Sequence record: MN158206.1
Source: Escherichia phage BEK2
Reading direction: 5' to 3' (one strand)
Length of the DNA stretch: 46,880 nt
Position 1 is the stretch's first letter. Each line of letters starts with the position of its first letter. Shown one piece after another: positions 6,869 to 46,880 of this stretch. The notes beneath the pieces are model-generated. The model made no database searches, was not told the origin of the DNA, and saw only the letters and a list, made by a program, of their open reading frames with translations. A program made the translations under genes and the position numbers.

Positions 6869-7813
6869 ATGGCCATTAAATTTGATGCAGAACAAGCAAA
6901 AATCACCGCTCATCTCGAGCAAATGGGCGTAGATAAGGCCGATGCCGCAGGTATCTGGACCGTTAGTCAGCTAACCGCATCTCTGAAACGTGCTTACGAA
7001 AAAGAGTATGCAGACAACTCAGTTGTTAACATTTTCCCTGTAACCAATGAAATCCCTGGTCACGCGAAGTATTTCGAATATCCAGAGTTTGATGGTGTTG
7101 GTATTGCTCAGATTATCGCTGATTACTCTGACGACCTGCCGCTGGTTGATGCATTCATGACCGAGAAGCAAGGTAAAGTGTTCCGTTTCGGTAACGCATT
7201 CCTGATTTCTACTGATGAAATTAAAGCTGGCGCCGCAACTGGTCAATCACTGTCAACTCGCAAGCAGGCGCTGGCTTTCGAAGCGCACGACAACCTGCTT
7301 GATAAACTGGTTTGGTCTGGCTCCACTCCGCACGGTATCCCAAGCGTATTCGATCAGCCGAACATCAACAACGTTGTTGCAACTCCAAACTGGAATTTGC
7401 CGCAGAACGCAATTAATGACGTCACCGCTATGATTGATGCGGTTGAGAGTGCAACTCAAGGCCTCCATCATGTGACTGACATTCTGCTCCCGGCCTCTGC
7501 TCGCCGAGTAATGCAGCAGCTAGTTCCGAATGCCGCCCTGAGCTACGGTGAATTGTTCACTCGTAACAACCCAGGTCTGAATATTCGTTTCTTGCAGTTC
7601 CTGGATAACTACGATGGTGCGGGTGGAAAAGCCGCTCTGGCGTTTGAGAAGAATCCGCTTAACGCTAGCATCGAGATTCCAGAGGCTACTAACGTACTTC
7701 CTGGCCAAGTGAAGGATTTGCATATCAAATACCCCGTAACTTCCAAATCGACAGGCTTGGTAATTTACAGACCTTTAACATTTGCAGTTATCAAAGGCAT
7801 CACCTTTGCTTAA
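6869..7813 (+). CDS. major capsid protein
   Basis: 314 aa, own promoter and terminator, central position in head module. Confidence 0.7.
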   Translation: MAIKFDAEQAKITAHLEQMGVDKADAAGIWTVSQLTASLKRAYEKEYADNSVVNIFPVTNEIPGHAKYFEYPEFDGVGIAQIIADYSDDLPLVDAFMTEKQGKVFRFGNAFLISTDEIKAGAATGQSLSTRKQALAFEAHDNLLDKLVWSGSTPHGIPSVFDQPNINNVVATPNWNLPQNAINDVTAMIDAVESATQGLHHVTDILLPASARRVMQQLVPNAALSYGELFTRNNPGLNIRFLQFLDNYDGAGGKAALAFEKNPLNASIEIPEATNVLPGQVKDLHIKYPVTSKSTGLVIYRPLTFAVIKGITFA

Positions 7814-45433: not shown

Positions 45434-45572
45434 ATATGTGATTGCATGTGAACGACTGGTTTTCGATATGAAGACTTTCCACTGGTTCATCATTAAGGAT
45501 CTAATTAAGCCTTATAAGCAATGCGTTACGCCAGAGGCATTTATAAAGAACTTCTATAGCACTAAAAGCTAA
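45420..45572 (+). CDS. hypothetical small protein (50 aa)
   Basis: internal ATG of track ORF 45342. Confidence 0.35.
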   Translation: MNFTEYVIACERLVFDMKTFHWFIIKDLIKPYKQCVTPEAFIKNFYSTKS

Positions 45573-45629
45573 ACGCAGTCGCCACGGATGGCATATAATT
45601 ACCATATCAAAACAAAGAGAGATTGAGAT

Positions 45630-45740
45630 ATGACAAGTTATGGTTCTTACACACTTGGTGAGCTATATGACGCTTATTACTCATGGGGTTCAGCATCAGA
45701 ATGCGATGCAGACACAAAGGCAGTAATAATTGAGGATTGA
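45630..45740 (+). CDS. hypothetical small protein (36 aa)
   Basis: RBS-like GAGAGATTGAG upstream. Confidence 0.3.
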   Translation: MTSYGSYTLGELYDAYYSWGSASECDADTKAVIIED

Positions 45741-45743
45741 GAT

Positions 45744-45983
45744 ATGTTCGGACTAAACGAGTCAATGTTCAATGCGGTAAAGCGCCAGGCTAAAAAGCTC
45801 AACGATAAGTATGAGTCATTAAGCAAACTGGAACGCAAGAATGATAAGTTTGTTGCGTGTGTAATCACTGAAGTTTGGGAGCCAGTTTCTACGGTAATCA
45901 GCAGAGATCGCTTTGTCTGGGTAGCTGGTTATTTGCGAGGCCGCGTTGGTCATGACGAGAATGGGGATAGTCTTTATGAGTGA
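45744..45983 (+). CDS. hypothetical protein
   Basis: 79 aa ORF. Confidence 0.5.
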   Translation: MFGLNESMFNAVKRQAKKLNDKYESLSKLERKNDKFVACVITEVWEPVSTVISRDRFVWVAGYLRGRVGHDENGDSLYE

Positions 45984-46040
45984 ATTAACAATCTGGTTTA
46001 TCGCGGGGCTGATTGCTTGGGGTTACTTTATGGTGGTCGC

Positions 46041-46283
46041 ATGAGAACACTTAGGCAGATCTTGAACGGTTGCAAGAAGCATCATTATGTATTTAACAAG
46101 TCTAGAGTGCCCCAGGGTCGTATTGGTTGTGATGAGTACTTTTGCATAAAATGCTTGCACATAATTCACATAAACCATAGGCCATTAAGCTTAAGAAAGC
46201 CTAAGATAGAATCCCTATACGGATACCAGCCGAAAGATAGTGGACATATGTGGGTGATTGGAAAACCGCCAGTTAAACGGTAA
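46041..46283 (+). CDS. hypothetical Cys-containing protein
   Basis: ATG 46041; 'C..C...C' pattern. Confidence 0.45.
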   Translation: MRTLRQILNGCKKHHYVFNKSRVPQGRIGCDEYFCIKCLHIIHINHRPLSLRKPKIESLYGYQPKDSGHMWVIGKPPVKR

Positions 46284-46297
46284 TTGTTAAAAAGAGC

Positions 46298-46326
46298 TTG
46301 CATCACTGACTGGAATTATCTAACAT
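46298..46326 (+). promoter_or_regulatory. sigma70-like promoter upstream of tRNA
   Basis: -35 TTGCAT, 17-bp spacer, -10 TAACAT. Confidence 0.4.
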
Positions 46327-46492
46327 TAACCACGTAGACAAACGAGCCATCCAAGATGGAACGGCGCACGGAGCGCAACTACTAAGTCCGTTGCTCATTA
46401 TGTAGCTCATGCGGCATTAAGACCTAGCGCAAATAGGCATATTAACCGGCTGTATCAGGCAGCCCCGGAGCCGTAACCGGGACTCATTCAAA

Positions 46493-46569
46493 GCTCGAGT
46501 GGCGAAAGTGGATATCGCAAGAGACTTCTAATCTCTAGATTGCTGGTTCGAATCCAGCCTCGGGCGCCA
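46493..46569 (+). tRNA. tRNA-Arg (anticodon UCU)
   Basis: hand-folded cloverleaf: acceptor GCTCGAG/CTCGGGC (one G-U), D-stem GCGA/TCGC with GG in loop, anticodon stem AGAGA/TCTCT, loop CT-TCT-AA, T-arm GCTGG-TTCGAAT-CCAGC, discriminator G, encoded CCA. Confidence 0.8.
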
Positions 46570-46584
46570 ATAAAGGAGTTCATT

Positions 46585-46767
46585 ATGTGGGATGTGAAGT
46601 TGTCCATTCGCTTAATGGGCCGCTCGTGCAAGAATTGCACTCAAGATTATATCGCGTCAGTTGCCGCAATCAGCGCTGAGGATGCGGTAGCGAAAGTAAA
46701 AGAGATGTCAGGCGCTGACCCTGATACTCACAAATTCCTGGTTGCTTACGTTCGTGAGCGAAAGTAA
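46585..46767 (+). CDS. hypothetical protein
   Basis: 60 aa from ATG 46585 with AAGGAG RBS. Confidence 0.45.
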   Translation: MWDVKLSIRLMGRSCKNCTQDYIASVAAISAEDAVAKVKEMSGADPDTHKFLVAYVRERK

Positions 46768-46811
46768 AAAGTGTTATACCCTCGTTAAGTTTCGTTTCTC
46801 TCGTTGTTTTT

Positions 46812-46837
46812 AGCCCTCGCTTGAGGGCTTTTTTTCG
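46812..46837 (+). terminator. intrinsic terminator
   Basis: agccctc-gcttg-agggct + T7. Confidence 0.7.
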
Positions 46838-46846
46838 CCTGCAATA

Positions 46847-46855
46847 TGGTATAAT
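46847..46855 (+). promoter_or_regulatory. extended -10 promoter (TGgTATAAT) for a gene starting beyond window end
   Basis: followed by RBS AAGGAGG at 46871-46877, no start codon inside window. Confidence 0.45.
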
Positions 46856-46880
46856 CTGACCTCAACAAAGGAGGATTAAC

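Follow-up and report, generated by a model that had tools for sequence, protein, structure and literature searches.

What lies between a phage promoter and the transfer RNA (tRNA) gene downstream of it: a passive transcribed spacer, or an RNA element in its own right? This question is raised by the genome of Escherichia phage BEK2 (MN158206.1), a stretch of 46,880 nt that was analyzed at its full length and is referred to here as the window. A first-pass annotation, made from the sequence alone, had described positions 46298-46569 as a phage-encoded tRNA-Arg(UCU) with a long transcribed leader, and had suspected that the intervening segment (46327-46492) might hold a second structured RNA. We find that the window carries a short transcription unit just 5' of the packaging genes, comprising a sigma-70 promoter (46298-46326), a leader RNA (46333-46492), tRNA-Arg(UCU) (46493-46569), an open reading frame (ORF) for a small CxxC protein (46585-46767), and an intrinsic terminator (46812-46836). 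Comparative analysis indicates that the leader is a previously undescribed RNA family that is present in every Drexlerviridae lineage sampled, phage T1 included.

The leader RNA and its promoter

The 981 bases around the locus are 100% identical to those of Escherichia phage BEK3 (MN158207.1, 46,884 bp; Drexlerviridae, Braunvirinae), such that a window coordinate equals the MN158207.1 coordinate minus 4. The annotation of that record is blank between the coding sequences (CDSs) at 45748-45987 and 46589-46771 (record coordinates), and the tRNA is also unannotated. Homologs of the leader were identified in 88 phage records, with 90-96% identity across most Braunvirinae. Searches of Rfam 15 with 46327-46492 returned no match to the leader, whether at gathering thresholds or at E values up to 10, nor was a leader match found in the homologous regions of 17 other loci, and no publication describing the leader was found. 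A BLAST search of 5,426 E. coli genomes with the leader likewise yielded no match, indicating that it did not originate in the host. An exact 16-mer scan of IMG/VR for AACGGCGCACGGAGCG returned 18 matches, six of which were true homologs, all on Braunvirinae-type contigs, with the others attributable to chance.

The evidence that this sequence is maintained as an RNA comes from covariation. RNAalifold was applied to an alignment of 19 Braunvirinae sequences spanning the transcript start to the tRNA (alignment A1), and predicted 35 pairs in seven helices, 10 of which pairs exhibit compensatory double substitutions. At the paired positions of A1, 98.3% of cells form standard pairs; sliding the 3' partners by 1-3 columns lowers this to 25-42%, and the slid versions exhibit only 0-2 pairs with double changes. 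None of 500 shuffles of A1 matched the observed paired fraction, double-change counts, or covariation score. A1 also contains 37 G·U cells that would be C·A on the other strand, which indicates that the structure belongs to the plus strand, on which the tRNA is also encoded. The loops and junctions are near-invariant (CAA, ACGGA, GCGCAAA, AGCCGUAA, AACG, and UAAGA) while stems covary; in helix 2 (the five HP1 pairs plus two CG/CG pairs), 4 of 7 pairs exhibit compensatory changes among the Braunvirinae. Some phages encode extra hairpins between P4 and P5, between P5 and P6, and 3' of P7, and leader length ranges from 157 to 243 nt. The elements of the leader in the window are as follows.

46333 to 46492, plus strand: conserved structured leader RNA of 160 nt (192 bits with covariance model R1, the sole match in the window)
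46333 to 46346, plus strand: single-stranded 5' tail CGUAGACAAACGAG (consensus YGUnnACAnAAGAG, kept across subfamilies)
46347 to 46359, plus strand: hairpin HP1, CCAUC-CAA-GAUGG (CG/CG pairs extend the helix to 46343-46363)
46364 to 46376, plus strand: hairpin HP2, GCGC-ACGGA-GCGC (loop RCGRWW family-wide, invariant within Braunvirinae)
46386 to 46415, plus strand: P4, G.CCGU/GCGGC around GCU/AGC (one G-C to A-U double change; U·G/C-G/U-A variation)
46423 to 46437, plus strand: P5, CCUA-GCGCAAA-UAGG (predicted; invariant where present; not in TR2 or ES)
46449 to 46463, plus strand: P6, GCUGU-AUCAG-GCAGC (3 of 5 pairs compensatory; homologous hairpin in XT34, Rogunavirus, and T1)
46464 to 46481, plus strand: P7, CCCGG-AGCCGUAA-CCGGG (2 of 5 pairs compensatory; CCGUAA loop conserved family-wide)
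46482 to 46492, plus strand: linker ACUCAUUCAAA of 11 nt from P7 to the tRNA (consensus A-C-n-n-AUUC; precedes a tRNA or a ribosome-binding site, depending on lineage)

These patterns identify the leader as a well-supported structured RNA family, the predicted structure of which is kept by compensatory substitutions. They bear out the suspicion of a second structured RNA in 46327-46492, even though the fold of the single sequence is unremarkable. The earlier statement that this segment lacks an ORF also held, in that no plus-strand ORF of at least 20 amino acids (aa) is present there, and the two small minus-strand ORFs vary in frame, strand, and length among relatives. Among close relatives the longest ORFs differ in strand, frame, and length, and a small ORF on either strand was therefore rejected as the cause of conservation.

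The promoter described in the first-pass annotation (TTGCAT-N17-TAACAT) was confirmed by its relatives. The aligned Braunvirinae share both hexamers and their spacing; phage ES carries a non-homologous TTGACA-N17-TACATT equally far from the RNA start; and a near-consensus TTGACR-N16-18-TAnnnT is positioned 5-7 nt 5' of YGTnnAC in 58 further Drexlerviridae loci. A promoter scanner calls the homologous promoter as the sole plus-strand site in ~1-kb regions of three other lineages. The same scanner reports no promoter-like site in 45500-46880 of the window, where the match by itself is no better than chance; it is the comparison between lineages that validates the promoter. An A-tract that abuts the -35 hexamer resembles the proximal subsite of an UP element, the consensus of which is AAAAAARNR at -46 to -38. 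At the predicted start, the pyrimidine(-1)/purine(+1) rule suggests initiation at G46334. The promoter elements are as follows.

46289 to 46296, plus strand: A-tract AAAAAGAG abutting the -35 hexamer (read from the sequence; conserved as TTGTTAAAAAGAGC in the Braunvirinae alignment)
46298 to 46303, plus strand: -35 hexamer TTGCAT (sequence and Braunvirinae alignment; TTGACR at the homologous site in other subfamilies)
46306 to 46313, plus strand: CTGACTGG word in the promoter spacer (kept in the same promoter of other subfamilies)
46321 to 46326, plus strand: -10 hexamer TAACAT (sequence and alignment; TAnnnT 5-7 nt 5' of YGTnnAC in all lineages)
46333 to 46334, plus strand: predicted transcription start, C46333/G46334 (fixed spacing from the -10 hexamer and a conserved YG dinucleotide)

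A separate observation concerns the octamer CTGAYYGG, which occurs 28 times in the window compared to an expectation of 4.5 ± 2.1, a count that none of 100 shuffles reached. Fifteen copies are on the plus strand and 13 on the minus strand (examples are at 1868, 5601, 11050, 43349, and 46306). Most are intragenic; the copy at 46306 is the one in the spacer of the leader promoter. We considered whether the octamer is a promoter-class signature or a Q-binding-like site and rejected both: it is 6-fold over-represented but scattered in coding DNA on both strands, and is thus not specific to promoters. It may be a Chi-like site, or a protein or methylase site.

Distribution of the leader and exchange of its tRNAs

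Covariance model R1, built from A1, was run unfiltered on loci fetched around relatives of the small terminase. Homologs were detected in XT34 (Nouzillyvirus; 36.1 bits, E = 2e-11), the locus of which has no tRNA, and in phage T1 (7623-7743; 26.2 bits, E = 1.4e-8), which also has no tRNA and in which the leader fills part of an unannotated 164-nt gap between gp58 and gp57. Lower scores were obtained for phiJLA23 (Rogunavirus; 14.1 bits), where tRNA-Arg(CCU) follows directly 3', and for vojen (Hanrivervirus; 10 bits), with weak syntenic matches elsewhere too. The lineages form a graded series that shares the promoter, the 14-nt 5' tail, HP1, AACG, HP2 with its RCGRWW loop, a middle part that varies, a final hairpin whose loop is CCGUAA, and the linker A-C-n-n-AUUC. 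The CCGUAA loop motif of P7 is also found in XT34, Rogunavirus, Tempevirinae, and T1, and Klebsiella Webervirus retains ~55 nt that comprise the tail, HP1, and a terminator-like HP2. In 16 non-Braunvirinae sequences, which are independent of A1, 97.2% of HP1 and HP2 cells are paired, compared to 21-52% in slid versions, and double changes are observed in 8 of 9 pairs (4 of 4 in HP1 and 4 of 5 in HP2).

BLAST counted 125 records with the Tempevirinae-type leader and 348 with the Webervirus type, nearly all of them lacking an annotation of it; these records were counted for the leader sequence and not scanned for tRNAs. Together with the 88 records noted above, homologous leader sequence is present in at least 560 sequenced genomes, in nearly all of which it either has no annotation or lies under doubtful 'hypothetical protein' calls. 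The presence of the leader without a tRNA in T1, Nouzillyvirus, Tempevirinae, and Webervirus loci indicates that the RNA predates the tRNA. We are thus confident that the leader is an independent, conserved structured RNA and that the tRNA is an insert. The original framing of this locus, a tRNA with a long leader, is accordingly not supported: the structured RNA is the older, family-wide element and occupies the same site where no tRNA is present.

The tRNA itself is readily recognized.

46493 to 46569, plus strand: tRNA-Arg, anticodon UCU, 77 nt, CCA encoded at 46567-46569 (ARAGORN; Rfam RF00005)

ARAGORN, run on the whole window, called exactly one tRNA, tRNA-Arg(tct) at 46493-46569 on the plus strand with the anticodon at position 35, and Rfam RF00005 matched it at full length (63.1 bits with a gathering score of 29; E = 1.8e-11; model positions 1-71). 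The cloverleaf has a 7-bp acceptor stem with one U3·G70 pair, as well as D, anticodon, and T arms, with CUUCUAA as the anticodon loop (U33, purine 37), UUCGAAU as the T-loop, and G73 as the discriminator. In the D-loop AAGUGGAUA, A occupies the position that corresponds to 20 (numbering by inspection), and C35, U36, and G73 are also present. The identity elements of E. coli arginyl-tRNA synthetase are A20, C35, U/G36, and A/G73, and by inspection of the aligned sequence the tRNA carries this set (A20, C35, U36, and G73). Both predictors accept the cloverleaf that had been claimed for this position, and the CCA end is encoded as described; it is a bona fide and ordinary phage tRNA, known in kind. 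It shares the canonical cloverleaf and encoded CCA with other phage tRNAs (the T4 and T5 clusters, and the tRNA-Arg of the Braunvirinae ACG-M12, SU57, JeanPiccard, and MSK), and, as in these, its anticodon matches a codon that the phage uses often and the host seldom. Its position is that of the tRNA in Braunvirinae relatives, whereas its sequence differs from most Braunvirinae copies and has no host-like counterpart.

A comparison of AGA and AGG usage in the late genes with that of the host had been proposed. In 55 crudely called ORFs (12,929 codons), AGA and AGG are used at 11.4 and 6.7 per 1000 codons, respectively, and together comprise 37.7% of arginine codons. In E. coli K-12, AGA and AGG occur at ~2 and ~1 per 1000 codons, respectively. 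Relative to these host figures, AGA and AGG are far more common in the phage, the classic pattern of codon supplementation. This suggests that the tRNA would supplement the decoding of AGA and, more weakly, of AGG.

The tRNA has a history that is distinct from that of the leader. The window tRNA is at least 95% identical to those in only five records, namely BEK3 and four Veterinaerplatzvirus T145P1 assemblies; the next closest sequences (~80%) come from unrelated Vibrio, Rhodococcus, and jumbo phages and are likewise tRNA-Arg genes, and BLAST against 5,426 E. coli genomes returned no match. The Rtp-type tRNA-Arg, carried by Rtp and the majority of other Braunvirinae, has different acceptor, D, and anticodon stems and is ~80% identical to a host tRNA-Arg that is present in 5,425 of the 5,426 E. 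coli genomes. The leader directly 5' of these exchanged tRNAs is still 93-96% identical between these Braunvirinae. As judged from such near-identical flanks, the tRNA-Arg of the window phage has been swapped in.

Variation in what follows the leader extends across the family. Among 72 non-redundant leaders, 17 are followed by one or more tRNAs (Arg-UCU in 11, Arg-CCU in 3, and Trp+Arg, Arg+Val, and Ser-GCU in one each), ~25 by a hairpin and U-run (one such call, in XT34, is spurious), and ~29 run straight into a ribosome-binding site. The CCU anticodon is found in TR2 (locus L008, 935-1010), ES (L009, 869-944), and phiJLA23 (L045, 2091-2166), and the slot elsewhere (among L058, L060, and L063) holds Trp(CCA)+Arg(CCU), Arg(CCU)+Val(AAC), or Ser(GCU). 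The tRNA is always positioned between the 3' linker of the leader and the ribosome-binding site of the ORF, a pattern that marks it as a lineage-specific, exchangeable insert.

Among the Braunvirinae, a tRNA-Arg was identified at the same position in all 16 loci fetched and is annotated in several of them. The paper describing phage MSK reports 'one tRNA-Arg of 78 bp' and, from cmsearch, 'no sRNA' (PMC8421802), and states that tRNA-Arg is missing from Rtp and DTL (PMC8421802). However, ARAGORN finds tRNA-Arg in both Rtp (L004, 993-1069) and DTL (L011, 914-991), the GenBank records of which leave it unannotated. The published claim of absence is therefore wrong and is an annotation artefact: the tRNA is missing from the annotations of BEK3, Rtp, and DTL, and an erroneous statement in the literature resulted (PMC8421802).

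Other annotations at this site are probably also in error. In BEK6 (L012, 905-1018), a minus-strand CDS is annotated across tRNA-Arg, and in DTL, 'ORF 26' (L011, 929-1189; 86 aa) overlaps tRNA-Arg and corresponds to an N-terminally over-extended version of the 60-aa CxxC ORF; we regard both as probable mis-annotations. Directly 3' of tRNA-Arg in BEK6 (L012, 995-1093) and PCEc3 (L002, 1358-1456) is a second tRNA-like element of ~99 nt, which scores 39 bits with the Rfam tRNA model, is not called by ARAGORN, and is annotated as a 102-nt 'tRNA-Ile' in PQ314493. An insertion into a tRNA, or decay of one, may explain this element.

Candidate functions of the leader

The arrangement of the unit suggests how its RNAs would be made. 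Host RNA polymerase would start at about G46334 and synthesize a precursor that comprises the leader, the tRNA, and the ORF. Cleavage by RNase P at the 5' end of the tRNA (G46493) would release a discrete leader RNA of ~159 nt with a 3'-OH, and trimming of the tRNA 3' end to the encoded CCA would set free the messenger RNA (mRNA) of the ORF. We consider this processing scheme very probable. The leader is probably functional as an RNA in itself. The role that we favor is that of a cis-acting regulatory 5' leader of the operon, which cleavage by RNase P would also set free as a stable RNA, and a platform for a protein or RNA polymerase, with the co-conserved CxxC protein as the obvious candidate partner; individual lineages would have exploited its strong promoter to express inserted tRNA cassettes. 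Cis action is favored over action in trans because the leader is always at the extreme 5' end of the operon transcript, because its 3' end is heterogeneous rather than conserved, because it is co-conserved with the CxxC ORF, and because the linker passes straight into a ribosome-binding site in many lineages; the assignment of the leader to a cis-acting class is nonetheless tentative. Taken as a whole, this account is on balance probably the best explanation of the locus.

Several observations weigh against it. The promoter in the window is a weak consensus match (7 of 12 positions, under the 9 of 12 threshold of the scanner), P5 exhibits no covariation, and the single-sequence fold of the leader is not better than shuffles (z = -1.07; opposite strand z = +0.26). 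No transcription start map, Northern blot, or RNA sequencing (RNA-seq) was found in the literature for any Drexlerviridae phage. Inspection of the alignments for conserved alternative pairing identified no switching structure, nor was a ligand or partner protein identified, and searches of PDB and BFVD with the model of the CxxC protein yielded no recognizable RNA-binding fold. The codon-supplementation role of the tRNA is deduced from codon usage in crudely called genes, set against approximate E. coli figures. Cleavage by RNase P would sever the leader from the mRNA of the ORF, which argues against translational control in cis in the window lineage and fits a trans-acting stable RNA equally, and the Tempevirinae RNA ends in a hairpin and U-run, like a free-standing small RNA (sRNA).

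The last two points introduce the main competing explanation, that the leader is a trans-acting stable sRNA, with the 5' tail (YGUnnACAnAAGAG) serving as a seed or the loops binding or sequestering a host factor. Its 3' end would be formed by RNase P in the window phage and at an intrinsic terminator in Tempevirinae, with endonucleolytic processing in the remaining lineages. A strong promoter of its own, a conserved single-stranded 5' end of 14 nt, and loops that are conserved while stems covary are all consistent with such an RNA, as is the hairpin and U-run end in Tempevirinae and some Webervirus copies, which is typical sRNA architecture; in the window phage, the RNA cut off by RNase P would be discrete and, being highly structured, probably stable, for which T4 species 1 and 2 offer a precedent. 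However, ~29 of the 72 leaders have neither a tRNA nor a U-run and hence no defined 3' end, no target was identified, no similarity to host sequence was found in 5,426 E. coli genomes, and no expression data were found in the literature. Examined as an Hfq-type sRNA, the window leader has a promoter but no terminator between P7 and the tRNA, whereas the Tempevirinae homologs have both. We regard action in trans as a serious rival, albeit a rather unlikely one. Less likely still, and in our view quite improbable, is that the leader is a processive antitermination RNA like put or EAR, in which nascent HP1 and HP2 would bind the transcribing RNA polymerase and allow it to read through the terminator before terS (and, in some lineages, U-run hairpins) into the ~20-kb late operon on the same strand. 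Two adjacent hairpins are fixed directly after the start in every lineage, strong terminators lie between the unit and terS in the window, vojen, locus L082, and T1, and the unit is at the junction of early-type and structural genes that are all on one strand. Conversely, terS itself apparently has an extended -10 promoter, cleavage by RNase P would break the RNA tether in the window phage, Webervirus keeps just ~55 nt with a different HP2 loop, and Rfam includes no family of the put kind. The likeness to HK022 put is one of architecture.

Two further explanations appear very improbable. A functionless, passive spacer 5' of the tRNA would accord with a single-sequence fold that is no better than shuffles and with the lack of a match to any known family, but not with 90-96% identity in most Braunvirinae, compensatory changes that keep seven helices, or a leader that exists without a tRNA in T1, Nouzillyvirus, Tempevirinae, and Webervirus loci and is found in 125 + 348 further leader records. 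Equally hard to credit is a DNA-level element, be it a packaging site, an origin of replication, or an array of operators, or else a decayed gene for a tRNA or small protein. The locus adjoins the terminase genes and the over-represented CTGAYYGG is found in the promoter spacer, but the numerous G·U pairs would turn into C·A mismatches if read from the opposite strand, and the element is at a fixed distance from the promoter. A pac site was rejected, as the terminal repeat of T1 (pac end) is at 1-2800, ~4.8 kb from the T1 leader at 7623-7743. A decayed tRNA was rejected as well, given that the sole match to the tRNA model in 46100-46880 (E up to 10) is the true tRNA and that ARAGORN calls none in the leader.

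Other candidates for the leader or parts of it were also examined, and were either left unsupported or rejected. A transcription-attenuating riboswitch or leader is not supported, as the window leader contains no terminator and the alignments reveal no conserved alternative pairing; a U-run hairpin follows the leader in only about a third of lineages. A kissing interaction of the HP2 loop (ACGG) with that of P7 (CCGU), apparent by eye as 3-5 bp in many lineages, is unsupported because XT34, L113, and phiJLA23 break the pairing and the bases are near-invariant. The likeness of P6 (GUAUCAGGCAGC) to the type I-F CRISPR repeat hairpin, a possible hint of an RNA anti-CRISPR, was rejected, in that covariation pairs CAGCC with GGCUG in a different register, and P6 sequences in other lineages are unrelated. 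A reading of the 5' tail as a boxA-like sequence in reverse complement was rejected because the G·U pairs fix the plus strand.

A bolder reading can be considered, in which the leader is a new regulatory RNA class of all T1-like lineages sampled that acts via a specific partner, and the promoter-leader module is a docking and expression site for tRNA cassettes. We find this reading doubtful. The partner of such an RNA would be RNA polymerase (in factor-independent antitermination into the packaging and structural operon), the CxxC protein, or a host factor, and exchange of tRNA cassettes (Arg-UCU, Arg-CCU, Trp, Val, and Ser) is possibly an answer to host codon usage or to tRNA-targeting defences.

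Conceptually, the closest known systems to the leader would be the T4 stable RNAs, promoter-proximal phage leader RNAs (put and lambda 6S/tR'), and GOLLD/ROOL. T4 stable RNA species 1 and 2 (rnaC and rnaD) are co-transcribed with tRNAs, tRNA-Arg being part of the second T4 tRNA subcluster, and mature via RNase P. Like the leader, they are structured noncoding RNAs (120-160 nt) in a phage tRNA transcript with an end set by tRNA processing; the leader differs in being upstream of the tRNA, in also occurring without a tRNA, and in always heading a protein-coding operon, and the likeness is conceptual. HK022 put RNA and the Bacillus EAR element are cis-acting antiterminator RNAs, and together with the lambda PR'-6S RNA-tR' arrangement they resemble the leader as promoter-proximal structured RNAs 5' of terminators and phage late or packaging genes. 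In this comparison of architecture, the leader stands apart in having a terminator for its own operon, an apparent terS promoter, and the P4-P7 elaboration in Braunvirinae. GOLLD and ROOL, both Rfam families, are ornate structured RNAs of phages and prophages (500-800 nt) that are often beside tRNA genes; the leader shares its phage setting and proximity to tRNA genes with them, but is 55-240 nt in length and matches neither Rfam model. Finally, in the manner of MALAT1-mascRNA and tRNA-linked sRNAs, cleavage by RNase P at the tRNA 5' end would make the 3' end of the upstream RNA, whereas other lineages form the 3' end of the leader at a terminator or leave it undefined.

T1-like phages (Drexlerviridae) are classic models, common laboratory contaminants, and frequent candidates for therapy against E. 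coli and Klebsiella, and nothing published was found on the control of gene expression in Drexlerviridae phages; papers on retron Eco2 and CBASS that name the family have no bearing on it. An RNA that is conserved from T1 to Klebsiella Webervirus at the early/packaging junction offers a handle on such control. The locus also constitutes a clean natural tRNA slot, in which one promoter-leader module drives different tRNAs by lineage, and this bears on phage tRNAs both as codon supplements and as countermeasures to tRNA-cleaving defences.

The protein cargo, the terminator, and neighboring sequence

The order of the unit is conserved: the promoter is followed by the leader, in some lineages by one or more tRNAs, then by the small CxxC protein and, where checked, by a terminator ahead of the small terminase gene. 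The leader, promoter, and CxxC ORF are present in every Drexlerviridae lineage sampled, and the unit is at the boundary of small early-type genes and structural genes, all on one strand. The downstream features in the window are as follows.

46573 to 46578, plus strand: ribosome-binding site AAGGAG of the CxxC ORF (begins 4 nt past the tRNA CCA; read from the sequence)
46585 to 46767, plus strand: 60-aa CxxC protein, the universal protein cargo of the unit (annotated as QGH76845.1)
46812 to 46836, plus strand: intrinsic terminator closing the unit, AGCCCUCGCUUGAGGGCU (46812-46829) followed by U7 (terminator scan)
46847 to 46855, plus strand: extended -10-like sequence TGGTATAAT 5' of the small terminase gene (read from the sequence; the scanner is silent, as there is no -35 hexamer)

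A homolog of the CxxC protein (…KLTIRRMGRxCxSC…) is encoded in the unit of all 19 lineages examined, in which an ORF of 55-77 aa is sometimes found 5' of the CxxC ORF and a small membrane protein is usually encoded 3' of it. T1 gp56 is a homolog of the CxxC ORF that is apparently annotated too short (47 aa). The AlphaFold model of the CxxC protein has a predicted local distance difference test (pLDDT) score of 86.8 and a beta-beta-alpha-beta fold. A Pfam search returned no match, the best PDB match in a structure search had E = 0.25 with no informative fold neighbor, and the only significant BFVD matches (E = 1.8e-06 and 1.0e-04) were uncharacterized phage proteins.

Strong terminators were called at the equivalent site 5' of terS in vojen, locus L082, and T1, and no plus-strand terminator was called in one further lineage scanned, where the promoter was called. 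The terS gene starts beyond the end of the window. Between the unit terminator and terS (window 46812-46855), GCCTGCAAT is followed by TGGTATAAT. The occurrence of GCCTGCAAT after the terminator in vojen as well (L047, 2391-2430) suggests a conserved promoter or control region proximal to terS.

Directly 5' of the promoter, an unannotated plus-strand ORF (46041-46283) encodes an 80-aa Cys/His-rich protein (MRTLRQILNGCKKHHYVF…CDEYFCIKCLH…). Its 3' end is common to PCEc3 and missing in most relatives, and a Pfam search was negative.

A last observation concerns records with unlikely host names. 'Pseudomonas phage PsgS01F' (PP134917.1; 44,679 bp, as Escherichia phage PCEc3) and ~20 'Campylobacter phage' records (MG0656xx) carry these E. 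coli T1-like sequences at 90% identity or above, and these names may reflect mislabelling or contamination.

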